Positions 29,013 through 43,969 of a DNA stretch of 64,000 bases are shown one piece after another. The DNA is taken from NCBI GenBank assembly GCA_014686905.1, contig GCA_014686905.1_4093.1, one strand, 5' to 3'. The position numbers were made by a program, and so were the translations under genes. This DNA comes from a phage. A model generated the notes under the pieces. That model saw nothing but the letters and a program-made list of their open reading frames with translations. It did no database searches and was not told the origin of the DNA. Numbering within the stretch: the first letter of the stretch is position 1; each line of letters begins with the position of its first letter.

Positions 29013-29018
29013 GTTTTA

Positions 29019-29096
29019 CATCAGGACGGGGAACGAAATAAGTAACTTCCCGTTAAGTAGCCCAGGAGTAAGGCACACGAAAAACTCCCCTGATAA
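29019..29096 (+). ncRNA. candidate small structured RNA / leader element between tandem promoters (copy 1)
   Basis: About 78 nt starting CAGGACGGGGAACG..., internal complementarity ACGGGGAA/TTCCCGT; near-identical copy at 38373-38450; no ORF. Confidence 0.3.
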
Positions 29097-29162
29097 AATA
29101 GTTTGACAAATGTTTTTAAAAGCGTATAATACTTACATCAACTACTGAATGAGGGTTATAAA

Positions 29163-29774: not shown

Positions 29775-29866
29775 TTCAAAAAGTACTGGACACTAAGCAA
29801 TAAAGGCGTATAATACTTTATATCGAGAGCGGGAATAGTTCCCGCTACTAATGAGGAATACTACAA

Positions 29867-30031
29867 ATGAATACTTTTACCTTCGCTCAATTGAACGCCC
29901 TGGATGTATTGTCTGATGCTTTGCGGGATGCAACTGAAAGCGGTTTATTTGACAATGTTGACATTCACCCTGATGTAATTAATAATTTTTGTGATGCTAT
30001 CGCAGAAGTACTGGAAGATCTAAAAAAATAA
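29867..30031 (+). CDS. hypothetical small protein (54 aa)
   Basis: Promoter plus leader hairpin GCGGGAATAGTTCCCGC then SD GAGGAA; hand-translated. Confidence 0.45.
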   Translation: MNTFTFAQLNALDVLSDALRDATESGLFDNVDIHPDVINNFCDAIAEVLEDLKK

Positions 30032-30119
30032 TAGAAAGTACTTGCAATTAGTTTTTAGTACTGTATAATAGTTTACATAGAGGGGAGAAATGGTTCTCCC
30101 TGGTAATGAGGAAAATAAA

Positions 30120-30341
30120 ATGGCTAATATCACTACTCTTTCTCAACTGGAAGCACTGGTTAAATCTATGCGGGAACATGCAGACAATATCGGCGTAAAA
30201 GATCCAGCCGTTTGCTTCTGCGACGAAATGAATGATGATACACTGGTAATAGCAGAAGTACAAGATATTTCTAACTATTCATCGCGTTACACTGGCGGCG
30301 TAGCAAATAAAGGTGACTTCTGTTTATACCTTACCAAATAA
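30120..30341 (+). CDS. hypothetical early protein
   Basis: Start moved to MANITTLSQ after SD GAGGAA; leader hairpin upstream. Confidence 0.55.
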   Translation: MANITTLSQLEALVKSMREHADNIGVKDPAVCFCDEMNDDTLVIAEVQDISNYSSRYTGGVANKGDFCLYLTK

Positions 30342-30346
30342 CAACG

Positions 30347-30376
30347 CGGGGAGATAATAACTCCCCGTTACTTTTT
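30347..30376 (+). terminator. intrinsic terminator-like hairpin
   Basis: CGGGGAG-ATAATAA-CTCCCCG followed by T-rich tract. Confidence 0.5.
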
Positions 30377-30585
30377 CAGTACTGAATCATTTAATAGACG
30401 GATCTCGGCACCCTGTGGGTTAGTGACTGTATCGTCTTTATGTAGTAATTATGCCAGTACTGGATGCAGTTGTCAACAATTATTTTTCAAATACTTTTTA
30501 TTAAAATACTTGCTATTAGTTTTTAAACGCGTATAATGTTTTGCATAGGGGGAGCGGTTCCCCCTGGTAACTAAGGAATAAGAAA

Positions 30586-30819
30586 ATGCTTGAACAAATC
30601 AAATCAACGTCTGCTAATGTAACGGGAACGGTATCACACTTTATTGGTGATGAATCGCGGGGCGTTCCCTATTGTGCTGTACATGTAAACACTGAGGGTA
30701 ACTACTGGTTTACGGTTTACGGATCATATTCATTTGGACGGCCAGGGCATCAAAAAATTCTGGATAAAGTACAACCAACGGGTAAAAATATCACTGCCGA
30801 AATGTTTTATAAAAACTAA
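30586..30819 (+). CDS. hypothetical early protein
   Basis: Promoter, leader hairpin GGGGGAGCGGTTCCCCC, SD AAGGAA. Confidence 0.6.
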   Translation: MLEQIKSTSANVTGTVSHFIGDESRGVPYCAVHVNTEGNYWFTVYGSYSFGRPGHQKILDKVQPTGKNITAEMFYKN

Positions 30820-30906
30820 TAAAATACTTGATAATAGTTTTTAGTACTGTATAATATTTTACATAGCACGGGGGAGCGGTTCCCCCTGGTAACTAAGGAT
30901 AATCAA

Positions 30907-31206
30907 ATGAAAATTGCAATCATCGCCCTGGCTTTATCTGTTTCCTCTTTCTCTGTTAATGCGTCGTTAGATGTACCTAGTGAAAAATTCATTCAGTGCA
31001 CCGTAGCGATGACCGATGAAAGTACTGGCGAGATTGTTTTAAAGGATTTAGAGATCCAGCCAGAAGCATTTAAAAACGGCCCGTTCCATGAAGAAGACGA
31101 AAACGGTAGCACAACAATTTATTATGATGCAAGTACTAAACGCGGTTCGGTCACTGTAATGGATACAGAGAAAGTAACACACACAGGAGTAATTAACTGT
31201 TTATAA
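30907..31206 (+). CDS. secreted/periplasmic small protein (signal peptide)
   Basis: N-terminus MKIAIIALALSVSSFSVNA-SLD has n/h/c regions and AxA-like cleavage site. Confidence 0.6.
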   Translation: MKIAIIALALSVSSFSVNASLDVPSEKFIQCTVAMTDESTGEIVLKDLEIQPEAFKNGPFHEEDENGSTTIYYDASTKRGSVTVMDTEKVTHTGVINCL

Positions 31207-31212
31207 ATCACT

Positions 31213-31240
31213 AGCCCACTCATACAGTGGGCTTTTTTAT
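31213..31240 (+). terminator. intrinsic terminator
   Basis: AGCCCACT-CATAC-AGTGGGCT followed by TTTTTT. Confidence 0.7.
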
Positions 31241-31434
31241 TTTTGTAGTACTGCATACTTTGAAAATAGTTTTAAGAAAGTAGTTGACATTACCGCAGAA
31301 AAGCGTAGAATGTATTACATCAAGACGGGGAGCACTAAGTAGACCGCCAGTAAGTCGAACGAAAAACTGGACACGTCGAGAAAACTTTGATACACTATCT
31401 AACGTAAACTAAACTTTAATTGAGGAATTATATA

Positions 31435-31917
31435 ATGGCTAATGTAAAATCATTCATCAAAGCACTGGTAGCAAATGAAACTAACGTAGCGGCAGAGATC
31501 CTGGCAGAACTGGATAACGATACCATGAAAGCAGTACGCAACAATTTTAACATTGCGTACAGTGAAGCTAAAGAACTGCAAGCCAAAAAGGTAGCAGAAC
31601 TGGAAGAACAGAAAAAAGCCCGTGAAGCAGAACTACAAGCAACAATTGAAAGTATCCAGTCGGCGGTGTCTGGATTGGATCTGGAAGTGGTTGTTGAAAT
31701 GGCACATAAAGCCCTGGCGGTTAAGTACGGTGAAGATAAGCCGGAATCTAAGCCTAAAAAATGGATTCAGGAACGCGTAGCGGTAGTACTTGATAACGGT
31801 GAAGAACATTTGATTCCTGTACGCGGTAACTGCATTGCGGTAGTACTGGACGCTATCAAAGAAAGCGGTATGACTCGCGAGGAATGGATCGAAGCTCATC
31901 GCAAAGTTGAAGCATAA
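31435..31917 (+). CDS. hypothetical protein (Lys/Glu/Ala-rich, probably helical)
   Basis: Start moved to MANVKSF after SD GAGGAA; long 5' leader. Confidence 0.6.
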   Translation: MANVKSFIKALVANETNVAAEILAELDNDTMKAVRNNFNIAYSEAKELQAKKVAELEEQKKAREAELQATIESIQSAVSGLDLEVVVEMAHKALAVKYGEDKPESKPKKWIQERVAVVLDNGEEHLIPVRGNCIAVVLDAIKESGMTREEWIEAHRKVEA

Positions 31918-31937
31918 CAATTAAAGTACTGAATCAA

Positions 31938-31966
31938 TAGCCCACCTTAAACAGTGGGCTTTTTTG
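31938..31966 (+). terminator. intrinsic terminator
   Basis: AGCCCACC-TTAAA-CAGTGGGCT followed by TTTTTT. Confidence 0.65.
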
Positions 31967-32201
31967 TGTCTATAGTATTCCAGTCCACTAGCACCGCCTA
32001 GAATCGATTCTAACGCATTAAACTGATTATCTGATACATCGCCCTAGCTGGTGGCGTTAAGGTCGTTAGAAAGCGATTGAGAGTGTTTAAAGTATTTTGC
32101 AAAAAGTAATAAAAAGTACTTGCATGATTAAGAGATTAGCGTATAATGTTTTACATCGAAAGGGGAAACGGTTCTCCTTCCAAATCAAAGGAATCAAAAC
32201 A

Positions 32202-32429
32202 ATGGCTATTATCATTACTCGCGTATCTGGTACTACTGGCAATTCTTCTACTGTTGCAGTCATTACTAACAAGGCAGGTGCGGAATTGCAAAATGCAATG
32301 AATACCTGGGCCGTTAATGAGTTCGGTCAGTGGGCAAGTGTAGCATACATTGAAACCTATCAAGTGCCGACCATTAGTTTAACGGATCTTGGTGTGGAAC
32401 GTATCCTTTGCTTGGATGAATTAAATTAA
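32202..32429 (+). CDS. hypothetical early protein
   Basis: Start moved to MAIIITRVSG after SD AAGGAA; promoter plus leader hairpin upstream. Confidence 0.55.
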   Translation: MAIIITRVSGTTGNSSTVAVITNKAGAELQNAMNTWAVNEFGQWASVAYIETYQVPTISLTDLGVERILCLDELN

Positions 32430-32514
32430 AAAAGTACTTGCAAAGTAAATCGAATAAAGTATAATACATTACATCAAGGGGAGAAATGATTCTCCCCACT
32501 ACAAGGAAACTAAT

Positions 32515-32658
32515 ATGAAAACTTGTCAATGTGGTAAAAAATCTATTACTGGTTTAAAGCGGGGCGTTGCTCTTTGCCAGTACCATTATAATTTACAAGT
32601 ATGGGGTAAAGAATGGGCCGACCAGGTGGAAGCAATTAAGAAAGCAAAAAGTAAGTAA
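32515..32658 (+). CDS. small Cys-containing protein (47 aa)
   Basis: Promoter plus leader hairpin GGGGAGAAATGATTCTCCCC; SD AAGGAA; hand-translated. Confidence 0.4.
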   Translation: MKTCQCGKKSITGLKRGVALCQYHYNLQVWGKEWADQVEAIKKAKSK

Positions 32659-32670
32659 AAATATTATCAC

Positions 32671-32708
32671 AGTACTATTGACATAGTTTGATAGTACTGG
32701 CATAATAG
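32671..32708 (+). promoter_or_regulatory. promoter module class 2 with flanking inverted repeat (AGTACTAT-TGACATAGTTTG-ATAGTACT, CATAAT), copy 1 of 3
   Basis: TTGACA, 17-bp spacer, CATAAT; near-identical modules at 35408-35446 and 43114-43150. Confidence 0.55.
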
Positions 32709-32747
32709 ATTTTATCAAGACAACATATTAATTTAAGGAATACTAAA

Positions 32748-33071
32748 ATGGCTAAAACTATCATTAACACCGTTTCCCTGGCTGCAATCCGTGCAATCAA
32801 TGTTGACGGTAAACGTTGGACTGATTCATATGGCAATACTTATCATTCTTGTCATGTAAGCGTCGAACTGGATAACGGTTTGAATGTTCTGGCGGTTGAA
32901 TCATTTACTTATGGCTATGAAGATGCATATCAACAAACGGCGTTAGATCTATTAAAGGAATCAGTAGACGGGCTTAATACTGATGAAACCTCCCTTACTC
33001 GTTTGTGCAATGATCTTAATATCCCGTTGCATTGTACTGTACAGAATGTTAAACGCAAAAAAGATCTTTAA
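32748..33071 (+). CDS. hypothetical protein; paralog of 39149-39472
   Basis: Shared motifs RWTDSxGNTYHSC, TFTYGY, VKRKKD. Confidence 0.65.
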   Translation: MAKTIINTVSLAAIRAINVDGKRWTDSYGNTYHSCHVSVELDNGLNVLAVESFTYGYEDAYQQTALDLLKESVDGLNTDETSLTRLCNDLNIPLHCTVQNVKRKKDL

Positions 33072-33151
33072 TTAGCTTTACTTTATGCAGATACTTTGAT
33101 ATAGTGTCTGCATAGGGGAAAGAAATTAAATTAACTTAAGAGGATCGTATA

Positions 33152-33421
33152 ATGAAAAATATCAGTACTTTAATCGATGCAGGTACACATGTTCGGCGGT
33201 CTATGGTTGCAACCAGTACTACAAAACAAGTAGCGAGCGGTTATCTTGTATTTGTGCACGATGGTAAACTCCTGGAACGTTCAATCAATTTTGATGTTAA
33301 AAACAATTGCCGTTTTATTATCTTTAAGCGTGAACAATATAAAATTGATTTACCAGCAAAGCCCATTAGCGGGGCGTACAACGTGCAATCATTGTTTGAG
33401 CGTCAACCTTACACCTATTAA
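33152..33421 (+). CDS. hypothetical early protein
   Basis: SD AAGAGGA upstream. Confidence 0.55.
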   Translation: MKNISTLIDAGTHVRRSMVATSTTKQVASGYLVFVHDGKLLERSINFDVKNNCRFIIFKREQYKIDLPAKPISGAYNVQSLFERQPYTY

Positions 33422-33472
33422 TCAAAACATCGTTAGCGGTCGATTTAGGCCGCTTGTATTGGGGATTATACC

Positions 33473-33643
33473 ATGAACGTTAATCAAGTACTGAATGAGA
33501 TCGAAAGCATCATTAAACCAATGAAACGCATTGATGCTATGTTAACACCGGAAGAATGCCGCCTTTATGAGCGTTACAGTGTGGAACAAGCCCAGGAAAT
33601 GGCCCGTATCCGTCCGGTTGCCAGTACTGATAAGGCGGCGTAA
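33473..33643 (+). CDS. hypothetical small protein (56 aa)
   Basis: Hand-translated; stop overlaps next start (TAATATG). Confidence 0.45.
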   Translation: MNVNQVLNEIESIIKPMKRIDAMLTPEECRLYERYSVEQAQEMARIRPVASTDKAA

Positions 33644-33644
33644 T

Positions 33645-33854
33645 ATGCTTACTGTACAGGATAAGATCGACATCTTAAAGGTTAATATGTATGTGATTGA
33701 TGCCGTACCTGGTAAAGTATTTGCATACGATGATTCTAATCGCAGTCCGTTTTATTGCAGTCATGTAGTTGGATACGTGCCGTTGGCGTATGTTATAGAA
33801 AGAGTGGTTGATGCAGCATACAAACATTTTTTAGAAAATAATACTTGCAATTAG
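33645..33854 (+). CDS. hypothetical small protein
   Basis: Start moved to MLTVQDKIDIL; translationally coupled to upstream ORF. Confidence 0.5.
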   Translation: MLTVQDKIDILKVNMYVIDAVPGKVFAYDDSNRSPFYCSHVVGYVPLAYVIERVVDAAYKHFLENNTCN

Positions 33855-33924
33855 TTTTCAGTACTGTATAATGATTTACATCGAGAGCGGGAATAGTTCC
33901 CGCCTCACTTTTAAGGAATATGAA

Positions 33925-34071
33925 ATGAAAGCATCAAAAAAGAGTAATACTAAGAAAGCATGTTCACCTTTCGCTGGGGTATTCCCTTTACGTTTCGTTG
34001 ATGAAGTGGTTTCCTACCCGCCTGGCCTTACTCCTGAGATGGTAGAAAGTTTGCGTAAATCTAAAAAATAG
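33925..34071 (+). CDS. hypothetical small basic protein (48 aa)
   Basis: Start moved to MKASKKSN after leader hairpin and SD AAGGAA. Confidence 0.45.
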   Translation: MKASKKSNTKKACSPFAGVFPLRFVDEVVSYPPGLTPEMVESLRKSKK

Positions 34072-34152
34072 TACTTGCAATTAGTTTTTAAACGCGTATA
34101 ATGTTTTACATGAAGGGGAGAAATGATTCTCCCCAATAACAGGAGAAACAAA

Positions 34153-34305
34153 ATGAAACAATATAATGCTCGGTTTGATGTTACTATCGGTAACGGCAAA
34201 GGTCAATTCTCTTTCAGTACTCGCAAAAGTTATACAGAAAACTTCCTGCGTAATTGTGCACTGACCGCCGCTCAAATTAAACATTATTTTCAGGCTAAAA
34301 AATGA
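34153..34305 (+). CDS. hypothetical small protein (50 aa)
   Basis: Start moved to MKQYNARFD after SD AGGAGA; leader hairpin upstream. Confidence 0.45.
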   Translation: MKQYNARFDVTIGNGKGQFSFSTRKSYTENFLRNCALTAAQIKHYFQAKK

Positions 34306-34391
34306 AATCATTTGCTTACTATAGTTCTGCGGTGATCGGTGCATTGATCGCGGCGTTGTTAGTAACCTATCTATTCTTTATGGTGATTTAA
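34302..34391 (+). CDS. tiny membrane peptide (29 aa)
   Basis: ATGA overlap with upstream stop; single hydrophobic helix. Confidence 0.35.
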   Translation: MKSFAYYSSAVIGALIAALLVTYLFFMVI

Positions 34392-34535
34392 ATGAATCCA
34401 ACAGGCTTAAATTATAAAAGTTGTTCGGCGTTTACGAAAGCAAATAAAGCGAATGCACGTAAAGCGAAAGTACAGGAGTACATCAAGCAAGGCATGACGC
34501 GAAAGGCGGCGATTCTAAAAGCTAAAAATAAATGA
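34392..34535 (+). CDS. small basic protein (47 aa)
   Basis: Abuts previous stop; Lys/Ala-rich. Confidence 0.4.
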   Translation: MNPTGLNYKSCSAFTKANKANARKAKVQEYIKQGMTRKAAILKAKNK

Positions 34536-34537
34536 AA

Positions 34538-34575
34538 AAAGTGGTTGACTCCGGTCAGCCATTTTGCTATTATAT
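34538..34575 (+). terminator. composite hairpin terminator plus promoter (TGGTTGAC-TCCG-GTCAGCCA, TTTTGC, TATTAT)
   Basis: Same architecture as 1157-1204; recurs at 38211, 41480, 43738. Confidence 0.55.
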
Positions 34576-34599
34576 ATTCATTGAGAGATAGCTCACTAG

Positions 34600-34624
34600 C
34601 CCACAGGGTGCATAAGTGTATCTA
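34600..34624 (+). promoter_or_regulatory. conserved intergenic motif CCCACAGGGTGCATAAGTGTATCT
   Basis: Near-identical motif at 38269-38292, 41542-41565, 43797-43820; related copies near 36270 and 28810; reverse-orientation core near 30410 and 26727. Confidence 0.5.
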
Positions 34625-34745
34625 TTATATAAGTATTGAGTACTGAAAACTATTTTTAAAAAGTACTTGCAAACTATCTCAATAAGCGTATAATGTTTTA
34701 CATCGAAAGGGGAAACGGTTTCCCCTGGTAATAAGGAAACAAATC

Positions 34746-35087
34746 ATGACTATCTCAATTGCTCAATCTAACTTTGAAAATGAAATCATCGCCCAGGCAC
34801 TGCGTTTAAATGATGGTCGGGCCGAAATTAATTACGGTTTCAATTCAGGCGGTTGCGAAAACTATCAGTACTTTGTAACGGCTGATGGCGGTGTCCTGGG
34901 TATCAATACAGTTATTGTAAACATCCAAAAAATTAATTTCAATGATCCAGACGATAGCCAGTTTTACATCACTGGCGTAGACGTGAACTATGAGGATGAC
35001 TCACTAACTGATGATCACACTGGCGAGCGGTTAGAAAGTGCATACGGTGAAGATGATTATCAGTCCGGTCCAGAAGATTTCGAATAA
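34746..35087 (+). CDS. hypothetical acidic protein
   Basis: Promoter plus leader hairpin AGGGGAAACGGTTTCCCCT; SD AAGGAAAC. Confidence 0.6.
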   Translation: MTISIAQSNFENEIIAQALRLNDGRAEINYGFNSGGCENYQYFVTADGGVLGINTVIVNIQKINFNDPDDSQFYITGVDVNYEDDSLTDDHTGERLESAYGEDDYQSGPEDFE

Positions 35088-35182
35088 TATAAAAAATAGT
35101 TTGACAATAGATTATAGTACTGTATAATAGTTTACATCAAGGGGAGAAAAACTTCTCCCCACTAACAGAGAGAGAAAACAAA

Positions 35183-35395
35183 ATGGCTAATATCCGGTCG
35201 AAATTAAAAAATGCAAAACAAGTTTTATTTTCAGATCATGAATACTTTAATAAAGATATTACAGGAGTTACAAGTATCAAGGAAGTAAAAGAAAAAACCG
35301 GCGTTTTGTGTGATGTGCGATTAGTTGGAACATTTGGGAATAACGTGCTATATCGCTGCGGTGATTACAATTTTACACTGACTATCATTAACTAA
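35183..35395 (+). CDS. hypothetical early protein
   Basis: TTGACA promoter, leader hairpin GGGGAGAAAAACTTCTCCCC, SD AGAGAGAGAA. Confidence 0.55.
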   Translation: MANIRSKLKNAKQVLFSDHEYFNKDITGVTSIKEVKEKTGVLCDVRLVGTFGNNVLYRCGDYNFTLTIIN

Positions 35396-35407
35396 AAATA
35401 TTATCAC

Positions 35408-35446
35408 AGTACTATTGACATAGTTTGATAGTACTGACATAATAAC
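35408..35446 (+). promoter_or_regulatory. promoter module class 2 with flanking inverted repeat, copy 2 of 3
   Basis: AGTACTATTGACATAGTTTGATAGTACTGACATAATAAC. Confidence 0.55.
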
Positions 35447-35478
35447 TTTTATCAACTACACTACTAAGGAATTAAAAA

Positions 35479-35658
35479 ATGGCTATCATCGCAAAAACTG
35501 AAATCGTTGGTCTGGATTCTATCATCATGACGTTTGAAGATCAAAAAGGTATGTATGTAGTTTCCTATGGTGATTATGTTCGGGAGTATGAAACGGTAGA
35601 CGAAGCCTTTGAAAGTTATATTCGCCAGGTGAATAAAGCATACGATGACTACCGCTAA
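35479..35658 (+). CDS. hypothetical small protein (59 aa)
   Basis: SD AAGGAA; hand-translated MAIIAKTEIVGLDS... Confidence 0.45.
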   Translation: MAIIAKTEIVGLDSIIMTFEDQKGMYVVSYGDYVREYETVDEAFESYIRQVNKAYDDYR

Positions 35659-35757
35659 AATATATTACCAGTACTATTAAATCTATTGACAACGTTTGAT
35701 AGTACTGTATAATAAGTTTTATAAACAGTAGTTAACTTAACCTAAGAGAGAAACAAA

Positions 35758-35901
35758 ATGATCGCACTGGATTCATTCATCGACGCAGTACTGGCAAAAA
35801 CTGGCGAGGATCTGACCGCAGAACAATACGCGATGATCGAGCAATGTCAGCAAAACGGTAAATCGGTGAAAGATACTGTTAAGATTATCCGCAAGATGTA
35901 A
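35758..35901 (+). CDS. hypothetical small protein (47 aa)
   Basis: SD AAGAGAGAAAC; followed by hairpin. Confidence 0.45.
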   Translation: MIALDSFIDAVLAKTGEDLTAEQYAMIEQCQQNGKSVKDTVKIIRKM

Positions 35902-35907
35902 TATTAT

Positions 35908-35936
35908 AGCCCACTGGTTAACGCTGGTGGGCTTTA
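35908..35936 (+). terminator. terminator-like hairpin
   Basis: AGCCCAC-TGGTTAACGCTG-GTGGGCT, weak T tract. Confidence 0.45.
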
Positions 35937-36006
35937 ATCATTTACCCTATACAATGCCAGTACTAAACCGTTTATCTCATTAGAATGCGTTACAGGACGT
36001 TTAACA

Positions 36007-36204
36007 ATGATTAGCATGAAATCAGTACAAAAACAAATAGAAACATTATCAAAAATTAAACGTAAACAATACTCCTTAGAATATACAATCAATGGTAACT
36101 ATCATCTAATGAAAGAAAATAATTTTATAGTCATTGATGAATCATTGCAAATCATTAGTATAGTACTGAAAGCATTAATCAATGACAGAAAAAAATTAAA
36201 ATAA
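36007..36204 (+). CDS. hypothetical small protein
   Basis: 65-aa ORF; weak SD. Confidence 0.45.
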   Translation: MISMKSVQKQIETLSKIKRKQYSLEYTINGNYHLMKENNFIVIDESLQIISIVLKALINDRKKLK

Positions 36205-36295
36205 TTGTTGACATACAATGCCAGTACTGGCATAATACTTACATCAAGACGAGAACGTCACCAACCCATAGGGTGCACAAATGTAACTATATAAT

Positions 36296-36375
36296 ATCGA
36301 TCAATAAATGATCAAAAAAGTACTGGATCAATTTAGCATAAGGCGTATAATTCTGATCAATTCTTGATCAAAGGC
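36296..36375. repeat. cluster of five GATCAA (three as TGATCAA) repeats within 73 bp, overlapping a TATAAT box
   Basis: GATCAA at 36299, 36310, 36326, 36355, 36366. Confidence 0.55.
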
Positions 36376-36532
36376 AATAAACGTAGTTGAAATTATATAG
36401 AAAGTACAAAGGCGTTACCATTCGTGGTAATGCTGGGGAATATGTAGTATCATACGGTTTGAATAAAATCAGTACTAGTAGTATAATCGTAGCATTGCAG
36501 TACTATAGTATTTTTATAATGAGGTTAAAATA

Positions 36533-36790
36533 ATGGCTGTAGGATTTGCGAAGGACGGGGCCGAACAAGACGAGATTAACGCAGTGATTCAGGCCGCCGT
36601 AAACCACGCTAGAAAGCAAATTAACGCACAAATAGAATCACTGGTACATTGCCTCGACTGCGGCGATATAATCCCTGAGAAACGACGCCAGGCCGTTAAG
36701 GGATGTAAGTACTGCATAACTTGCCAGGAGGATCATGATAGTACTTTTAAACGTCCCCCGCGTAATTGTTGGCATAGATCTATGAGATAA
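36533..36790 (+). CDS. DksA/TraR-family C4 zinc-finger protein
   Basis: CLDCGDIIPEKRRQAVKGCKYCITC: two CxxC pairs with typical spacing, small size. Confidence 0.65.
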   Translation: MAVGFAKDGAEQDEINAVIQAAVNHARKQINAQIESLVHCLDCGDIIPEKRRQAVKGCKYCITCQEDHDSTFKRPPRNCWHRSMR

Positions 36791-36853
36791 AAAGTATTGA
36801 CAGTACTGAAAGATAGTGTATAATATTTTATATCTTAACTGAGGATTGAAATC

Positions 36854-37210
36854 ATGGGAATACAACATATCACGCGTACTACTGACAATGGCGAGATCAC
36901 TGGCTATCAAGTACAGGGCAAAGTAGCACAATTGCAGTACTGGTTTGTTAAACGTGGAATCATTGCACCGGATCTTGATTATGACCGTGTAGCGTTTATT
37001 GATTCTCTTTATGTTGATCCTGATAGTCGGGGCAATGGTGAAGGTAACGAATTAATGAATGCCTTTATTGATGCCGCCGATGATTCAGATTGTATCATTT
37101 TAGAATGCGATACAGGAGAAGATAACGCCTTCAATCTTAAAGAATGGTACGAAGGTTTCGGATTCGAGGTACTGATCGATAGTGAATATCCTATCATGAT
37201 TTTATCATAG
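36854..37210 (+). CDS. putative GNAT-type acetyltransferase-like protein
   Basis: LYVDPDSRGNGEGNELMNAF resembles the GNAT acetyl-CoA-binding loop; weak. Confidence 0.4.
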   Translation: MGIQHITRTTDNGEITGYQVQGKVAQLQYWFVKRGIIAPDLDYDRVAFIDSLYVDPDSRGNGEGNELMNAFIDAADDSDCIILECDTGEDNAFNLKEWYEGFGFEVLIDSEYPIMILS

Positions 37211-37288
37211 TACTTGCATTTAGTTTTCAGTACTGTTATAGTACTTACATCAAGGGGAAACATCTTCCCCTACTAAGAGGAAATAAAA

Positions 37289-37477
37289 ATGGAAAACTTA
37301 TCAAGTATTTTAGTACAAGATGATTTCGGTAATCCTGGAAGTGCTATCATTGTTCGGGGTAATAAAGCAACGTTTGTTATTGCTGGTGGACCTGTACAGC
37401 GTAGCATTAAAAATAATGCTGTTACCATTAATAATGTACGCTATCGCTTAGATAAAGAATTGATTCATAAACTTTAA
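37289..37477 (+). CDS. hypothetical early protein
   Basis: Promoter, leader hairpin GGGGAAACATCTTCCCC, SD AGAGGAAA. Confidence 0.55.
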   Translation: MENLSSILVQDDFGNPGSAIIVRGNKATFVIAGGPVQRSIKNNAVTINNVRYRLDKELIHKL

Positions 37478-37561
37478 AAAGTATTTGACAATAGATTATA
37501 GTACTGTATAATAAGTTACATGAAGGGGTGAAATGATTCTCCCCACTAAGAGGAAAGAAAA

Positions 37562-37774
37562 ATGCAAGGTCAACTAATCGTTCGTAAATGGTCTGATACT
37601 AACGAAAAACCGTGGGATGTACAATACATCGGACCGGATGGGGTATCACGTTATCAGCCTGGCGTAACGCATAGTACTGAGCAATTCGCAAACGCTCACC
37701 GCGAACGCCTGTTAGAATCCATGAAACAGGGATTCTGTGAAAAATTCATTCAAGATCATTGGCTGAAAGATTAA
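37562..37774 (+). CDS. hypothetical early protein
   Basis: TTGACA promoter, leader hairpin, SD AGAGGAAAG. Confidence 0.55.
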   Translation: MQGQLIVRKWSDTNEKPWDVQYIGPDGVSRYQPGVTHSTEQFANAHRERLLESMKQGFCEKFIQDHWLKD

Positions 37775-37791
37775 TATAAGGAGTACAGCTT

Positions 37792-37884
37792 ATGCAAATG
37801 AATCCGATGATTATTGTTTTAGCTGTACTTATGATCATTCATGCAATAGTAGAAGTATTAACGCAATCAGGAGTAATAAAATGA
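37792..37884 (+). CDS. tiny membrane peptide (30 aa)
   Basis: SD AAGGAG; single hydrophobic helix. Confidence 0.35.
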   Translation: MQMNPMIIVLAVLMIIHAIVEVLTQSGVIK

Positions 37885-38054
37885 TTCAAGTAGAATTATC
37901 AGTACTGAAAGATCTGTTTTATCGGTTAGGTACTACTGGCGAGTATCCTAAAAGTGATACCGCAAAACTTTTTGTATCACTCGACTTATGGCAACGCGAA
38001 CAATTAGTAATGTCCTGGCGTAAAGGTAAAGCAGATAGCGAGGTGAAAGCATGA
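37881..38054 (+). CDS. hypothetical small protein (57 aa)
   Basis: ATGA overlap with upstream peptide. Confidence 0.45.
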   Translation: MIQVELSVLKDLFYRLGTTGEYPKSDTAKLFVSLDLWQREQLVMSWRKGKADSEVKA

Positions 38055-38200
38055 AAGAATTCTTATTCGAAGTAGTGTTTCAAGGTGTCGGTAGTAACCA
38101 ACTGATTCGCTCAAGTGGTTACAATGTTAACCAGGCATGGAATAACATTAAACAAATGTACCCGAACGCTATCACCTATCGCAACCCGAAACAAGTTTAA
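38051..38200 (+). CDS. hypothetical small protein (49 aa)
   Basis: ATGA overlap; followed by composite terminator element. Confidence 0.45.
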   Translation: MKEFLFEVVFQGVGSNQLIRSSGYNVNQAWNNIKQMYPNAITYRNPKQV

Positions 38201-38210
38201 AAATAATTGA

Positions 38211-38250
38211 AAAAGGGATTGACTCCGGTCAGTCCCTTTGCTATTATATA
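38211..38250 (+). terminator. composite hairpin terminator plus promoter (GGGATTGAC-TCCG-GTCAGTCCC, TATTAT)
   Basis: Same architecture as 1157-1204. Confidence 0.55.
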
Positions 38251-38372
38251 CGCATAGAAACAAATCAGCCCACAGGGTGCATAAATGTATCTATTGTTTG
38301 CTGGTGGCTAGTACTGAAAACTATTTTTAAAAAAGTACTTGCATTGTACTTAGAATCAAGTATAATGTTTTA

Positions 38373-38450
38373 CATCAGGACGGGGAACGAAACAAGTAAC
38401 CCCGTTAAGTAGTCCAGGAGTAAGACATAAGAAAACCTCCCCTGATAAAA
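38373..38450 (+). ncRNA. candidate small structured RNA / leader element between tandem promoters (copy 2)
   Basis: Near-identical to 29019-29096; bracketed by two promoters. Confidence 0.3.
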
Positions 38451-38515
38451 TAGTTTGACAATAGAAAGTAAACGAGTATAATACTTACATCAACCACTGA
38501 TAAGGAAACATTAAA

Positions 38516-38791
38516 ATGCGGATTCTACTGACAGCTAACGAAATCGAACAAGTACTGACTACTAACCTGGAAGACTGGAAACGTGAAGCAGATATCCAGG
38601 CGGTTCAACGGCTTAACGATGAGTTAACGCCGGATGACTTAAGCAAGATTGTAGATCCTCAATTCTACGAAGATATCCACGACACCGCGTTAAGCGTCGA
38701 GGATGTACTAGATAAGCACTACATTGATATTGATTTGCAGGTTTACGGTCGTAAAAACTTTATCACTATTCACGACATTTACAATAATTAA
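38516..38791 (+). CDS. hypothetical acidic protein
   Basis: SD AAGGAAAC; 91-aa ORF. Confidence 0.6.
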   Translation: MRILLTANEIEQVLTTNLEDWKREADIQAVQRLNDELTPDDLSKIVDPQFYEDIHDTALSVEDVLDKHYIDIDLQVYGRKNFITIHDIYNN

Positions 38792-38877
38792 GTATTGACA
38801 AAGTATCTTAGTACTGTATAATAGTTTACATCGAGAGGGGGAATGGTTCCCCTCCTAACAAAGAGAGAGAAATAAAA

Positions 38878-39060
38878 ATGGCTAAATGCACTATCTGTAA
38901 GAAAGAAATCGTATTAGTTCCAAGTGCCCGTGAACGTGCCGCTCGGTTCGGTGGCAAACCGTCAGACTATACAAAAATGTTTACTGTCCATGCAGCTTGC
39001 CAGGTAGCAAAACGTTCACAAGAAAGCGTAGAATTAATGCGTAAACTTTCCAAAAAATAA
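38878..39060 (+). CDS. hypothetical small basic protein
   Basis: TTGACA promoter, leader hairpin GAGGGGGAATGGTTCCCCTCC, SD AGAGAGAGA. Confidence 0.55.
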   Translation: MAKCTICKKEIVLVPSARERAARFGGKPSDYTKMFTVHAACQVAKRSQESVELMRKLSKK

Positions 39061-39148
39061 GTATTGACAAAGTATCTTAGTACTGTATAATAGTTTACAT
39101 CAAGTGAGGGGAAACGGTTCCCCTCCTAACAAAGAGAGAGAAATAAAA

Positions 39149-39472
39149 ATGGCTATGATCCTTGCCCAGAAAGTAGAACTGAAAATTGTAACCTCCTTTG
39201 ACATTAAAGTTAATCGGTGGACTGATTCACACGGCAATACTTACCACTCTTGCTACGTGTCTGCGTTAATTGGTGATCGTTGGGAAGACCTGGGACATGA
39301 AACCTTTACATACGGTTACGGCACACAAGGCGAATACACGGGCTTGGAGATCATTAAAGAAACCGTTATAGGTTTCAACCCGAAAGAAAAAGTTATTCAC
39401 CGCATCGAAAAAGAGATTAACAAAGAAATAACAGTTCGATACAACGATGTAAAACGTAAGAAAGACATGTAA
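39149..39472 (+). CDS. hypothetical protein; paralog of 32748-33071
   Basis: Start moved to MAMILAQK; shared RWTDSHGNTYHSC...TFTYGY...VKRKKD; promoter plus leader duplicated from the 38878 unit. Confidence 0.65.
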   Translation: MAMILAQKVELKIVTSFDIKVNRWTDSHGNTYHSCYVSALIGDRWEDLGHETFTYGYGTQGEYTGLEIIKETVIGFNPKEKVIHRIEKEINKEITVRYNDVKRKKDM

Positions 39473-39567
39473 TAGAATCCATTTAAAGTACTATTTGACA
39501 TTGCCCAGATAGTACTTTATAATAGACTCTAACTTGTAGTACTAACTCAACTAATAGGATGTATACC

Positions 39568-39963
39568 ATGATTACTAAATTCTACGCTACCCGTGAAGCT
39601 GCCCGTATTGTTGCACGCGAGGAAGGAGCAGCATTTAAAGACATGGGCAAAGATGCACCGAAAGGTCAACGCTGGGCCGTACAGTTCAAAGAAATCTCTG
39701 ATATCGTGAATTCACCGGAGCCAGTACTAACAGCAGCAGAACTAAAACGAGCGGATTTACTGGCGGCAGTACTTAACGCACAAGATGAATTTATCGCTGA
39801 TTCTGATATCAAAGTACAGACAAACCATACCGCTTGGACTCACGCGGATCACCTGGCAAACCTTAAGCGTCCAAGTGAACTGGTACGCAACCAGAAAGAG
39901 ATCCGACACGACCGTAAGGGTAATCGTGTAACAGTATACAGTAAACGCCGCCAGGTTATCTAA
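39568..39963 (+). CDS. hypothetical protein; paralog of 28151-28417
   Basis: MITKFYATREAARIV...DRKGNRVTVYSKRR. Confidence 0.6.
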   Translation: MITKFYATREAARIVAREEGAAFKDMGKDAPKGQRWAVQFKEISDIVNSPEPVLTAAELKRADLLAAVLNAQDEFIADSDIKVQTNHTAWTHADHLANLKRPSELVRNQKEIRHDRKGNRVTVYSKRRQVI

Positions 39964-39985
39964 TAACTTGCAGTACTAACAACAC

Positions 39986-40010
39986 GGCGGGATCAGTTCC
40001 CGCCTTTTTT
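39986..40010 (+). terminator. intrinsic terminator
   Basis: GGCGGGA-TCAGT-TCCCGCC followed by TTTTTT. Confidence 0.7.
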
Positions 40011-40025
40011 ATAGGATAAACTAAA

Positions 40026-40280
40026 ATGATTAAGGTACAACTATCTAAAGATAATATCTTGCGGGTACACTATAAAGCACCACAGAGAATCATCACAAAG
40101 GCCGTACAGCTTGCTAATGAGTTTATTAATGGTAACCTATTACCAAGGAAGTTAAGCAACGGAAAACTGCGTGTAATCGATGTAGACACTAACAACAGAA
40201 TAGTAATAGAGAACACAGGAAAGATAAACCTTTATGAACATCAACAATATAATAAGAAAATAAAACTAATATCACGTTGA
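40026..40280 (+). CDS. hypothetical protein
   Basis: 84-aa ORF; SD-like AGGATAAAC. Confidence 0.5.
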   Translation: MIKVQLSKDNILRVHYKAPQRIITKAVQLANEFINGNLLPRKLSNGKLRVIDVDTNNRIVIENTGKINLYEHQQYNKKIKLISR

Positions 40281-40333
40281 CAGTACTCAATTGTTTTAGT
40301 ATTATGTACACATACCAACACGGGAGAAACAAA

Positions 40334-40552
40334 ATGAAATTATCTAAAATCGAAAAGAAAACTATTGATGAAGCAGTTAAGCACGGTTATACCTTTCGTA
40401 ATGATTCACATTTTACCAATTTTCAACAAGGCCAAAGGACTATTAAAAAACTAATTGACAAAGGTTTATTAGTTAAAGTAGATAACGGTAACGGCATTGA
40501 GTATCAGCCAACCCAAGACGCATTATCTTTAAAGAAATATGCAATTATCTAA
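40334..40552 (+). CDS. hypothetical protein
   Basis: Start moved to MKLSKIEKK after SD GGGAGAAAC; promoter TTGACAGTACTCAATTGTTTTAGTATTATGTACA duplicated before next gene. Confidence 0.5.
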   Translation: MKLSKIEKKTIDEAVKHGYTFRNDSHFTNFQQGQRTIKKLIDKGLLVKVDNGNGIEYQPTQDALSLKKYAII

Positions 40553-40609
40553 TTGACAGTACTCAAATGTTTTAGTACTATATGTACATACCAACACGGG
40601 GGAAACAAA

Positions 40610-40852
40610 ATGATTACTTTAGAAAAACGTATCAAAGAAACTACATCGCTGGTGGAACTGTTAACAGTACTGAAATGTAAAACAACACCATTCAGCACGC
40701 CGGACTTTATTAATATGGTTGATGTTAATGGTCGCTATCGTATCACGGTCGAACAAGGAGCGGCGAAAGTATTCAGTACTAAAAACACTAAGGAAGTGAT
40801 CCACGCCGTTAATGTTAAAAAAGTAGTTGCAATTGATAGTAAAGTACTGTAA
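40610..40852 (+). CDS. hypothetical protein
   Basis: Start moved to MITLEKRIKE after SD GGGGGAAAC; duplicated promoter block. Confidence 0.5.
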   Translation: MITLEKRIKETTSLVELLTVLKCKTTPFSTPDFINMVDVNGRYRITVEQGAAKVFSTKNTKEVIHAVNVKKVVAIDSKVL

Positions 40853-40883
40853 TATAGTTTCATTAACTCAAGGAGAACATGCA

Positions 40884-41468
40884 ATGCGTAATTATACTAA
40901 ATTCATCCGTACCCTGTCAGAAATGGAAACTAACAAAGAGATCCTTTCAGCTTGTCGGTTAGCTGGACTGGAGATCATCGGGGCGGGATCTTCCCGTATA
41001 GTTTTCGCTTTAAATGATCGGTTAGTGATTAAGGTCGCCAATTGTGATGCGGGTGTAGAACAAAATGAAACTGAATGTAAGGTATGGAATTTTTTAGACT
41101 ATGACCGCCCTCAATTGAAACAGTACTTTGCTAAAGTGCATATGCATTTAAGCGATCCTGATAATATGTTTATCGTTATGGATCGGTTGAGTACTGCAAG
41201 CAAAGGCAGTGTAAAGCACGTTAACGCGTGCAACGAATTAAAGTACAATATTAAACGTAATGCAATTGAACGCCAGCACCGCTTTGCTGATGCACTACAA
41301 CACGTTGATGATACACTGTCAACACTAACGATAAGAGATATCAGAAAACAGAATATCGGCCAGGATCGCAACGGCCTTATTAAAGTACTTGATTACGGTT
41401 TAACCCGCAATATCTGGAATCAGTACTATAAAAAGCGGGATGTAAAAGCCGTAACTATAACACGATAA
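40884..41468 (+). CDS. minimal protein-kinase-like protein
   Basis: Gly-rich loop IIGAGSSRIVF, VIKVA (VAIK-like Lys), catalytic-loop-like RDIRKQN, DFG-like DYG, in kinase order. Confidence 0.55.
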   Translation: MRNYTKFIRTLSEMETNKEILSACRLAGLEIIGAGSSRIVFALNDRLVIKVANCDAGVEQNETECKVWNFLDYDRPQLKQYFAKVHMHLSDPDNMFIVMDRLSTASKGSVKHVNACNELKYNIKRNAIERQHRFADALQHVDDTLSTLTIRDIRKQNIGQDRNGLIKVLDYGLTRNIWNQYYKKRDVKAVTITR

Positions 41469-41479
41469 AAAAGATTAAA

Positions 41480-41517
41480 AAAGGGATTGACTTCGGTCAG
41501 TCCCTTTGCTATTATAT
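41480..41517 (+). terminator. composite hairpin terminator plus promoter
   Basis: GGGATTGAC-TTCG-GTCAGTCCC, TTTGC, TATTAT. Confidence 0.55.
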
Positions 41518-41691
41518 ATTCATTGAGAGATAGCTCACTGACCCACAGGGTGCATAAATGTATCTATTATATAAGTATTCAGTACTGAAAACTATTTTTA
41601 AAAAAGTACTTGCATTGTACTTAGAATCAAGTATAATGTTTTATATCGAGAGGGGGAAATGGTTCTCCCTCAAAGAATAAGGAATAAAATC

Positions 41692-41913
41692 ATGACTACA
41701 ATGACTTGCATTTACGCTTCCAATCTTCTGAATGATGCGGCCTTTAATGTTGATTCAGAATATCAATGTTATCGGGATGAAAATAAAAAAGTTTTTGTAG
41801 TTGATAATAATGGTTTCCATATTGAATTACAATCCGGTTTCACTGGTGTTGATGGTAAATCAGTATGGGGCGTACAGGATGATAACGGTACATATCATTT
41901 TAAACGTAATTAA
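41692..41913 (+). CDS. hypothetical early protein
   Basis: Start moved to MTTMTCIYAS after SD AAGGAA; leader hairpin AGGGGGAAATGGTTCTCCCT. Confidence 0.55.
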   Translation: MTTMTCIYASNLLNDAAFNVDSEYQCYRDENKKVFVVDNNGFHIELQSGFTGVDGKSVWGVQDDNGTYHFKRN

Positions 41914-41997
41914 GTATTGACAAAGTATCTTAGTACTGTATAATAGTTTACATCAAGGGGAGAATAGTTCTCCCCGATACTAAAAGGAAACAAAATT

Positions 41998-42270
41998 ATG
42001 TCCAGCTACTCCGCTACTATGATCATTAAAGATATGAACGGTAATCCTACTTCTGCTGGTGGATCATTTGGAAACATTAATTTAGATGGTCGGTTATCCA
42101 TGCAATCAGCCATCGATGCAGCGAAAGAAGTTTTTAAGAATGAATGTACTGTTAGTAAGCTGGATTATATGGGATTCGCTATCGAGAAAACTAATCGTTT
42201 TGTGAACTACAAAAATCCACTGATGATTGATACTAACCTGAAAGCTAACGAAGTGGGGTACTTATTATGA
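41998..42270 (+). CDS. hypothetical early protein
   Basis: TTGACA promoter, leader hairpin GGGGAGAATAGTTCTCCCC, SD AAGGAAAC. Confidence 0.6.
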   Translation: MSSYSATMIIKDMNGNPTSAGGSFGNINLDGRLSMQSAIDAAKEVFKNECTVSKLDYMGFAIEKTNRFVNYKNPLMIDTNLKANEVGYLL

Positions 42271-42458
42271 CAGTAGAAGAAGTTAAAAAAGTACTGGCAG
42301 TACTACGCTATCATAATCATTGCAAGGTGAAGAATGATCCTGATTATGTTGATTCATCCCTGGAGGAAGACACATTAAACGCAATAAGCCATATGCAAAC
42401 ATTAGCAAAGCGTATGACCGAAAAGAATAGACCGGACTATATCGGAAATAAAATTTAA
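42267..42458 (+). CDS. hypothetical small protein
   Basis: ATGA overlap with upstream gene. Confidence 0.5.
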   Translation: MTVEEVKKVLAVLRYHNHCKVKNDPDYVDSSLEEDTLNAISHMQTLAKRMTEKNRPDYIGNKI

Positions 42459-42544
42459 AAAGTACTTGCATTGTAGTTAGATTAACGTATAATGTTTTAC
42501 ATAGAGCGGGGGAATAGTTCTCCCGCCAGTCCAGGAGATACACC

Positions 42545-42808
42545 ATGAACACTATCGAAATCACTATCAATGCACACGTATACGACAACGTAGTACTGCA
42601 AACTACTATGACCGCTAATGATACCAGTACTTTGCGGAATACTGTTATTAGTGCCGTATGTGCCGCTATCGGTGATGTCGCCCTGGAAAATGCAGAACAC
42701 ATCAACGACGGTTTCACTATGTGCAAACGTGATAACGCAAAACATATCATCGTAGAAGGTTACGGCGGTGTAGAATATAATCTTTATATGAAAAAAGTAC
42801 TTGCATAA
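42545..42808 (+). CDS. hypothetical early protein
   Basis: Promoter, leader hairpin GCGGGGGAATAGTTCTCCCGCC, SD AGGAGA. Confidence 0.6.
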   Translation: MNTIEITINAHVYDNVVLQTTMTANDTSTLRNTVISAVCAAIGDVALENAEHINDGFTMCKRDNAKHIIVEGYGGVEYNLYMKKVLA

Positions 42809-42875
42809 TAACTAAAACAAAGTATAATGTTTTGCATAGGGGGAGATATCCTCCCCCACTAAAAGGAGTAATAAA

Positions 42876-43100
42876 ATGGCTAACTTTGATGAACTGATGC
42901 GGGAAGTAGCTAACCTGGCAGAAGAGAAAAAATCATTCGATTCTATCTATAACACCGCTCACCGTGATTCAGTACTGGCATGTACTCAGGATCAAAAAGA
43001 TGAACTAATCGCCACATATCATGAAGCATGGAAGTACTACCGCCAATGGGAGAAAGAAGAAAGCGAGTCTACCATCAACGGCATCAATAATCTAATCTAA
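42876..43100 (+). CDS. hypothetical early protein
   Basis: Promoter, leader hairpin GGGGGAGATATCCTCCCCC, SD AAGGAG. Confidence 0.6.
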   Translation: MANFDELMREVANLAEEKKSFDSIYNTAHRDSVLACTQDQKDELIATYHEAWKYYRQWEKEESESTINGINNLI

Positions 43101-43113
43101 AAGTTTTATTTCA

Positions 43114-43150
43114 GTACTATTGACATAGCTTGATAGTACTGATGTAATAA
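43114..43150 (+). promoter_or_regulatory. promoter module class 2 with flanking inverted repeat, copy 3 of 3
   Basis: AGTACTATTGACATAGCTTGATAGTACTGATGTAATAAC. Confidence 0.55.
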
Positions 43151-43176
43151 CTTTACTAACTACAAGGGGAAACATA

Positions 43177-43434
43177 ATGGAACAGTTCACACAATATCGG
43201 GTAAATCCTCAAGCTATGGCCTACGTAGAAGACCATAAAACGTTACCAGTACTAACACCAATTAAAGGCCATATCTATCGTGCAATGTCATGGAATACGG
43301 CCCAGGATGGATATACTACCGCTGGCGTGGGTATGTATTGCGGGAATGGTGAATGGTTTGATCCAAATAATCCGGTAGCCATTGACAGTACTGAAAAAAT
43401 GAAATGGGCCGACTACATCGAAGATATTTCATAA
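43177..43434 (+). CDS. hypothetical early protein
   Basis: SD AAGGGGAAAC; 85-aa ORF. Confidence 0.55.
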   Translation: MEQFTQYRVNPQAMAYVEDHKTLPVLTPIKGHIYRAMSWNTAQDGYTTAGVGMYCGNGEWFDPNNPVAIDSTEKMKWADYIEDIS

Positions 43435-43523
43435 AACTATTTGACAGTACTAACCAGTAATGTATAATGTTTTACATAGAGCGGGGGAATAGTTCTCCCG
43501 CCAATAGTTTGGAGTAAAACATT

Positions 43524-43724
43524 ATGTCTATCGCTATCGCCCTGGTTGAAGTACTGAAAGAAGCTAAAGCCAACCTTATCGATGTACAGATTAAGGAATT
43601 GCAAAATGGTTTAATCGGCTGTACTTGTACCGCTGGTGGAGCGGCAGACTATCGGGAATTCGAATCACTTGAATCGATGGTCCGTTATCTTACCATGATC
43701 GTAGAAGATTGGAGAATCATCTAA
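43524..43724 (+). CDS. hypothetical small protein
   Basis: Promoter, leader hairpin, SD GGAG. Confidence 0.55.
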   Translation: MSIAIALVEVLKEAKANLIDVQIKELQNGLIGCTCTAGGAADYREFESLESMVRYLTMIVEDWRII

Positions 43725-43737
43725 CAAAAAAGAATAA

Positions 43738-43777
43738 AAAAAGGGATTGACTCCGGTCAGTCCCTTTGCTATTATAT
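43738..43777 (+). terminator. composite hairpin terminator plus promoter
   Basis: GGGATTGAC-TCCG-GTCAGTCCC, TTTGC, TATTAT. Confidence 0.55.
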
Positions 43778-43969
43778 ACGCATAGACAAAAACTAGCCCA
43801 CTGGGTGCAGGAGTGTATCTAAAATATATAGTTAATAACGGTGAGTAACTATCTGCTGGTGGGGTGAAAACTATTAATAAAAAAGTATTGACAAAGTATA
43901 TCAGTACTGCAATAATGTATCTCGTAGGGCGGCAATGGTGCGACGGCCCACAAAGTTAGGAGATTCAAA

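Follow-up and report, generated by a model that had tools for sequence, protein, structure and literature searches.

A YbiI-branch DksA/TraR zinc-finger protein encoded in the early region of a 121Q-like jumbo coliphage

The gene and its own expression signals

The phage DNA analysed here, hereafter the window, is a single stretch of 64,000 nucleotides (contig GCA_014686905.1_4093.1). Its + strand carries a small gene for a C4 zinc-finger protein, with the associated features collected in Table 1. An ORF of 85 aa had been proposed at 36533-36790, and the ORF list contains it exactly so, on the + strand and with an ATG start. The translation of this ORF reads MAVGFAKDGAEQDEINAVIQAAVNHARKQINAQIESLVHCLDCGDIIPEKRRQAVKGCKYCITCQEDHDSTFKRPPRNCWHRSMR.

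Table 1. Features at and around the zinc-finger gene, in positions of the window.
Feature	Position	Strand	Evidence and remarks
Promoter-like site TTGACA-17-CATAAT + TG, 11/12	36208..36236	+	Consensus scan; stronger than the site at 36459..36487
Doubtful 48-aa ORF, TTG start	36387..36533	+	Stop overlaps the zinc-finger ATG (TAATG)
Promoter-like site TTGAAT-17-TATAAT, 10/12	36459..36487	+	Consensus scan; 46 nt before the ATG
Shine-Dalgarno GAGG	36521..36524	+	Direct sequence reading; 8 nt before the ATG
CDS, 85 aa + stop	36533..36790	+	ATG start, ORF list; YbiI-branch DksA/TraR C4 zinc-finger protein, orthologue of 121Q gp294
N-terminal tip motif, residues 1-12, MAVGFAKDGAEQ	36533..36568	+	Alignments, motif counts; near-invariant across YbiI-type proteins, both phage and bacterial
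Predicted N-terminal alpha-helix, residues 6-28	36548..36616	+	AlphaFold2, block pLDDT 75-78
C4 zinc finger, residues 40-64	36650..36724	+	Invariant columns; HMMER and hhalign alignment to TraR
C-terminal tail RNCWHRSMR, residues 77-85	36761..36787	+	Alignment and tail counts; conserved in the phage subfamily
GNAT acetyltransferase, 118 aa, directly downstream	36854-37210	+	Pfam PF00583, E=4e-9

Nucleotide differences were counted by codon position in a comparison with the orthologues of 121Q and vB_Ec-M-J and with those of two T4-like phages. They amounted to 2/6/15 against the 121Q orthologue and to 20/17/52 against the homologue of Klebsiella phage F48. This bias towards third codon positions indicates that the zinc-finger frame is under purifying selection. 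The ORF is a real gene. Antisense and overlapping ORFs at 36503-36931 were also considered and rejected, the conserved frame being that of the zinc-finger protein on the + strand.

The putative site at 36459..36487 is likely the gene's own promoter. The stronger candidate further upstream is a possible alternative transcript start, and a sequence scan between it and the zinc-finger gene found no terminator-like site. The 48-aa ORF that runs into the zinc-finger ATG is probably a decayed paralogue and not a gene: it appears as gp293 in the 121Q annotation and is unannotated in vB_Ec-M-J. Its N-terminal part and the ORF at 35479-35658 both contain 'YVVSYG', and the nearer promoter-like site lies in the 3' half of the 48-aa ORF. 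On the other side, the GNAT acetyltransferase gene was rejected as a partner: it has its own perfect promoter (36797-36824), and in T4-like phages the two genes are not linked.

The surrounding early region

The 3 kb around the gene are 93-96% identical to Asteriusvirus genomes (44 records, including 121Q, SHEFM2K, SP27, fEgEco12 and vB_Ec-M-J), and by this similarity the window is Asteriusvirus DNA, from a 121Q-like jumbo coliphage. A consensus scan of the + strand revealed 13 perfect (12/12) TTGACA-16/17-TATAAT promoters and many 11/12 matches within ~24.1-43.9 kb (~24,150-43,900). The spacers in this array typically end in AGTACTG and the discriminators are A+T-rich, of the form A(G/C)TTTACA. 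Many of the promoters have a GGGGAG...CTCCCC leader hairpin downstream, often placed before the RBS. Each array promoter serves one tiny ORF or a small number of them.

This promoter array coincides with a long terminal repeat known from related phages. The vB_Ec-M-J orthologue (12349-12606) falls within an annotated direct terminal repeat of 21,525 bp, and the searched passages of PMC13070987 describe an experimentally supported repeat of 20,993 bp for fEgEco12. When the flanks of the window were mapped on vB_Ec-M-J and fEgEco12, the repeat occupied ~25-45 kb of the window, coincident with the promoter cluster. By synteny, the zinc-finger gene is thus inside a direct terminal repeat of ~21 kb, whose genes are probably present twice in each virion genome. 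The promoter-rich terminal-repeat region resembles the pre-early genes in the T5 terminal repeats.

The searched passages of PMC13070987 attribute a sigma factor to these phages and make no mention of a phage RNA polymerase (RNAP) for fEgEco12; together these statements point to an apparent dependence on the host core RNAP. The original prediction had considered a phage early gene plausible, and the context agrees with it: a 121Q-like phage, consensus sigma-70 promoters all around and a terminal-repeat position by synteny. Judged from these sequence features, early, host-RNAP-driven expression of the gene is well supported.

Several further elements were noted in the window. Stem-loops at 34538-34575, 38212-38249, 1155-1195 and 2570-2610 contain a -35 hexamer within the stem (AAAGGGaTTGACTccGGTCAgtCCCTTT), followed by a TATTAT or TATAAT -10 element. 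We take these terminator-plus-promoter cassettes to resemble the 'promoter-early stem-loop' (PeSL) elements of T4-type phages, and they may be related to the sharing of single-gene modules, such as the zinc-finger gene, between Asteriusvirus and T4-like phages. About 200 bp at 42257-42471 are 79-85% identical to E. coli myoviruses of ~130-150 kb (vB_EcoM-ECP26, EduardKellenberger, Ro121c4YLVW). Since these myoviruses are unrelated to Asteriusvirus, this segment looks like another small module that was shared horizontally. A 60-aa ORF on the + strand (38878-39060) has a CTIC...HAAC motif (CxxC...HxxC) and no Pfam match; it is possibly another small zinc-binding early protein. On the - strand, 8163-21072 is a tandem block of about eleven apparently paralogous ORFs, mostly of 380-440 aa. 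For ORFs under the right-hand edge of this block, the annotations in relatives read 'regulator of chromosome condensation' or 'DNA condensation protein' (RCC1-like).

Family membership, zinc finger and distribution

The protein had been predicted to belong to the DksA/TraR family. A profile search against Pfam PF01258 (zf-dskA_traR) was positive, with 41.4 bits over residues 39-68 (E=1.4e-10) against a curated gathering score of 24.9, and the protein also matched PHROG 54 ('DksA-like zinc-finger protein', E=5e-19). The top NCBIfam model was PRK11019, the YbiI equivalog (E=4e-23, residues 1-72), whose threshold was nevertheless missed (81.5 bits, cut-off 96). Scores also stayed below the cut-offs for TIGR02419 (TraR-type, 52.6 against 59.7 bits), PRK13715 (TraR, 30.1 against 108) and NF033459 (DksA proper, 14.5 against 105). 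Among PDB sequences, YbiI (2KGO, E=2e-12) ranked before TraR (5W1S/6N57, E=1e-5). In a profile-profile comparison (hhalign), the YbiI-type proteins aligned to TraR with 99.3% probability and without gaps, residues 19-72 matching TraR 16-69; residues 1-18 and 73-85 found no counterpart in this alignment. The TraR homologue search gave close TraR relatives only, so that the TraR profile is shallow. By these profile matches, the protein is a member of the DksA/TraR C4 zinc-finger superfamily, in its YbiI branch. This assignment is correct but not new, as public annotation already has it: 121Q gp294 is labelled 'DksA-like zinc-finger protein' in RefSeq, its original GenBank label being 'C-4 type zinc finger protein', and an NCBI protein at 98% identity is named 'TraR/DksA C4-type zinc finger protein'. 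A weak profile and fold similarity to the ribosomal protein eS26 (E 0.075; Foldseek E>1) was rejected as a generic zinc-ribbon resemblance.

The zinc ligands identified by alignment are C40 and C43 (CLDC) and C61 and C64 (CITC), in a C-x2-C-x17-C-x2-C arrangement. The Cys spacing is identical to that of TraR (C37/C40/C58/C61); neither the spacing nor the profile search thus speaks against the family. The original reading of four Cys in two CxxC pairs holds for these ligands, but the segment that was quoted for the second pair, 'CKYCITC', itself contains three Cys. The additional one, C58, is by alignment not a ligand and is Val in many homologues, and a sixth Cys, C79, is located in the C-terminal tail. 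The invariant columns of the alignment are C40, C43, I47, P48, R51, R52, G57, C61, C64 and Q65, with the invariance of I47, P48, R51 and R52 counted over 56 sequences; E49 is conserved in at least 90%. In the HMMER and hhalign alignments, I47, P48, E49, R51 and R52 are the counterparts of TraR I44, P45, E46, R48 and R49, and TraR G54 is conserved in the phage protein as well. TraR R48 is important for binding to the rim helices, E46 and R49 are central in the Si3 interface, and a P45A variant is defective in binding (PMC9239242, PMC6970531). By alignment, the residues with which TraR contacts the beta' rim helices and Si3 of RNAP are therefore conserved as P48, E49, R51 and R52.

An AlphaFold2 model, built on 56 homologues, was of moderate confidence (pLDDT 71.6). 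The N-terminal helical segment of the original prediction reappears in it as a helix over residues 6-28; the zinc knuckles come next, then a short helix at 62-68, and the tail is disordered and of low pLDDT. The Foldseek match to TraR in 6N57 identifies helix 6-28 as the counterpart of the TraR N-terminal helix, which enters the secondary channel. At the other end, the TraR C-terminal helix covers residues 58-73 and the sequences align up to TraR 69, whereas the model predicts only helix 62-68 before the low-confidence tail. In TraR-type proteins, the C-terminal helix touches Si1 of the beta-lobe, a contact that is uncertain for the phage protein. Foldseek ranked YbiI 2KGO highest (E=4e-5), then RNAP-bound TraR (TM 0.45/0.53) and, weakly, DksA structures (7KHI, 5VSW, 1TJL).

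YbiI (88 aa, sigma-S dependent) is thus the best match in sequence and in fold. The two proteins share a length class, the N-terminal motif MAxG[FW]AxDGAxQ, an IPExRR zinc finger and a basic tail that ends in S-x-[LM]-R. However, the phage protein is only 38% identical to YbiI, has K56 in place of a conserved Pro and a helix-to-finger loop that is 1-2 residues longer, and is encoded by a phage, YbiI being chromosomal. In the YbiI literature, we found expression data related to sigma-S and Fur and one remark on complementation, and no mechanism: when over-expressed, E. coli YbiI relieves a dksA mutant of its amino-acid auxotrophy ('data not shown'), and the authors favoured an iron-related role (PMC2613031).

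F-plasmid TraR (73 aa) has the same organization, with one N-terminal helix, a globular C4 zinc-finger domain and a C-terminal helix, which is predicted to be shorter in the phage protein. Like TraR, the phage protein is devoid of a ppGpp-binding region and would thus act without ppGpp. Unlike TraR, it is extended by 3 residues at the N-terminus and by 9 at the C-terminus, and it has no DxxDxA. DksA (151 aa) belongs to the same zinc-finger domain family (PF01258) and gave weak fold matches, but at 85 aa and with a single N-terminal helix, the phage protein is without the coiled coil, the ppGpp site-2 residues and the DxxDxA of DksA. Other small DksA/TraR zinc-finger proteins are encoded in phage early operons: lambda Orf73, P2 Orf82, VHML Orf8 and VP882 Orf61/TraR. 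Phage homologues of TraR bind RNAP, inhibit rrnB P1 and raise the lambda yield 3-4 fold (PMC9239242), and they can also arrest host growth (bioRxiv 10.64898/2026.07.27.740977). The lambda Orf73 group belongs to temperate phages and has a DxxDxA or near-DxxDxA tip, whereas the phages considered here are strictly lytic myoviruses and the tip is another one. Moreover, VP882 TraR acts with a partner, QisA, and no comparable co-conserved partner was found for the present protein.

The gene is widespread among large lytic phages. A tblastn search matched 659 phage records, 159 of them at 60% identity or more; these 159 include the full-length phage type, and the records sampled from them were from Asteriusvirus, Salmonella jumbo phage SE_PL and T4-like phages, including Citrobacter phage Moon and members of Gaprivervirus, Dhakavirus and Marfavirus. 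The 45 closest protein clusters are conserved over the full length (62-98% amino-acid identity), while Orf73-like proteins of Stx phages match over residues 28-67 only. In a library clustered at 50% identity, the phage type forms one cluster, and 302 clusters match at E<=1e-10, mostly bacterial YbiI-like proteins. In T4-like phages, the gene sits in the variable tk/rI region, with neighbours that have no match in the window; no partner gene is co-conserved between the Asteriusvirus and T4-like loci. The zinc-finger gene thus occurs as a single-gene module in large myoviruses that are strictly lytic: in Asteriusvirus, in other jumbo phages and in many T4-like genera. In Escherichia phage PhAPEC2 (Mosigvirus, 1501-1578), the last 26 residues alone remain, 69% identical, between rI and mobD; PHROG 25948 (54 aa, unknown function) likewise matches residues 59-85. 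These fragments suggest a recurrent decay of the gene in T-even phages, or a re-use of its tail. The two bacterial YbiI homologues whose contexts were examined lie in different surroundings, a trp operon with selO and next to a GGDEF gene, and neither context revealed a link to iron or to another pathway.

Conserved termini and possible modes of action

The two ends of the protein distinguish it from TraR. At the N-terminus, the motif MAxG[FW]AxDGAxQ is present, M1, A2 and G4 being invariant and K7, D8, G9, A10 and Q12 conserved in at least 90%. The whole YbiI branch carries MAxG[FW]AKDGAxQ where TraR has its DxxDxA tip. Indeed, neither DxxDxA nor the relaxed form [DE]..[DE].A, which includes DxxExA, was found in the phage protein by regular expression, MAFFT or hhalign, and DxxDxA occurs in 0/45 phage-type, 4/159 YbiI-type and 45/68 TraR sequences. 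DxxDxA is critical to the activity of TraR, lambda Orf73 and DksA, and DksA with substituted tip aspartates still binds but has lost its function (PMC9239242); D74 and A76 of DksA were called functionally critical (PMC4010833). The alignment of the phage N-terminus to TraR that MAFFT forced is unsupported, as the hhalign alignment begins at residue 19. In the helix-to-finger register of bacterial YbiI, spacing counts put D8-G9-A10 on TraR D6-x-A8 and F/W5 on D3, and TraR D6 and A8 are the counterparts of DksA D74 and A76. Depending on the register, a half-motif, D8-G9-A10, may thus survive. In the gapless register, the N-terminus reaches 3 residues beyond that of TraR, in which S2 already sits 4.3 A from the catalytic Mg2+ (PMC6970531). 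An identical pose would therefore clash or need rearrangement, and as the tip is not DxxDxA, its effect at the active site may not be the one that TraR has.

At the C-terminus, the YbiI tail NRRGSKDSQLR is absent and is replaced by PRNCWHRSMR, in which R77, S83 and R85 are kept. The ending RNCWHRSMR is found in 37 of the 45 phage-type sequences. Intermediates between the phage and bacterial tails exist, for example in P0125 (...HNRKVWHRSMR).

We consider a TraR-like binding to the RNAP secondary channel, with control of transcription initiation, to be the best-supported mechanism, and a somewhat better than even bet; that the protein binds, in what pose and to what effect, we infer by analogy. 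The protein is most likely produced as soon as infection begins, from promoters that depend on the host RNAP. Its zinc-finger domain (P48, E49, R51, R52) would dock where the secondary channel opens, onto the beta' rim helices and Si3. Helix 6-28 would extend through the channel and bring the tip A-V-G-F-A-K-D-G-A close to the active site, where it would alter the kinetics of initiation. Host promoters with short-lived open complexes (rRNA, ribosomal-protein) would be inhibited, and the phage promoters, with their consensus -35/-10 elements and A+T-rich discriminators, would be spared; RNAP and NTPs would thus be freed for the phage. TraR and DksA are known to inhibit promoters with unstable open complexes, such as those of rRNA, and to affect consensus promoters with A+T-rich discriminators little (PMC9239242, PMC6970531). 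Within the YbiI branch, the one functional hint in its favour is the reported complementation of the dksA mutant by YbiI (PMC2613031). Against such a mechanism stand the missing DxxDxA, the termini that cannot be aligned, the short predicted C-terminal helix, the NCBIfam scores below cut-off and the example of the family members RSP0166 and SMc00049, which do not behave as DksA does.

The same observations can be read differently. The protein may bind RNAP at the TraR site without having TraR-like activity, either excluding DksA/ppGpp, GreA and GreB as Rnk does, or plugging the channel. Without the first tip Asp, it would act mainly by exclusion and so insulate phage transcription from a stringent or stress response of the host, whereas a plug would block the active site or the entry of NTPs with the longer, aromatic tip (G-F-A-K-D-G-A) and shut off transcription generally. 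We regard this reading as rather unlikely, even though the channel-mouth contacts are conserved while the tip differs and is yet near-invariant, and the N-terminus extends 3 residues beyond a TraR tip that already approaches the Mg2+. The DksA tip substitutions, which lose function and not binding, and Rnk, a purely competing binder, provide precedents (PMC9239242). However, the reported complementation of a dksA mutant by YbiI points to a DksA-like activity (PMC2613031), and a general plug would also halt the phage's own host-RNAP-dependent transcription. It is also conceivable, if doubtful, that RNAP is not the target at all and that the YbiI-type zinc ribbon acts on nucleic acid, the ribosome or metal homeostasis, only the scaffold being TraR/DksA-like. 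The homology to TraR is indeed limited to residues 19-72, and the most conserved segments, 1-12 and 77-85, are family-specific; the authors of the TraR work stated that 'not all C4 zinc finger proteins function like DksA', citing RSP0166 and SMc00049 (PMC9239242). Both of these are annotated as DksA/TraR, miss several critical DksA features including DxxDxA and are not DksA-like (PMC9239242, PMC4010833). The weak resemblance to eS26 goes in the same direction but is not significant and is probably generic. It is hard to explain with such a target why the TraR rim-helix and Si3 residues P48, E49, R51, R52 and G57 are invariant or nearly so; moreover, the contexts of the bacterial homologues vary, with no iron or pathway link in the two examined, and no partner gene accompanies the protein from Asteriusvirus to the T4-like loci.

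That the ORF arose by chance, or is a decaying and functionless remnant, is effectively refuted. It is very small and lies amid many small ORFs, and PhAPEC2 keeps a C-terminal fragment only, which implies that the gene is dispensable in some lineages; but full-length identities of 62-98% in the 45 closest clusters, the 159 records at 60% or more, the third-codon-position bias, the invariant zinc ligands and termini and a good RBS all argue against it.

Beyond the favoured TraR-like mechanism, there is a further, rather unlikely reading: the phage-type YbiI-like proteins may be RNAP secondary-channel effectors of a functionally distinct class, employed by large myoviruses that are strictly lytic. 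Such a class may be defined by the invariant tip AVGFAKDGA, with an aromatic residue in the position of the first DxxDxA Asp, and by the invariant tail PRNCWHRSMR, and be delivered from the terminal-repeat early region. It could act unlike TraR, for instance by antagonising host DksA/ppGpp and Gre factors or by reaching the active site.

Two modest questions are at stake: whether TraR-like control of host transcription, known from temperate phages and plasmids, is also exerted by lytic phages of the jumbo and T4-like kinds, and whether a tip other than DxxDxA can serve. The YbiI branch has no demonstrated mechanism. In its phage sub-branch, both ends of the protein have hardly changed between two groups of lytic phages that are unrelated to each other and apparently rely on the host RNAP. 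If the phage-type proteins do form a distinct class, this would also reveal the function of the widespread bacterial YbiI family.
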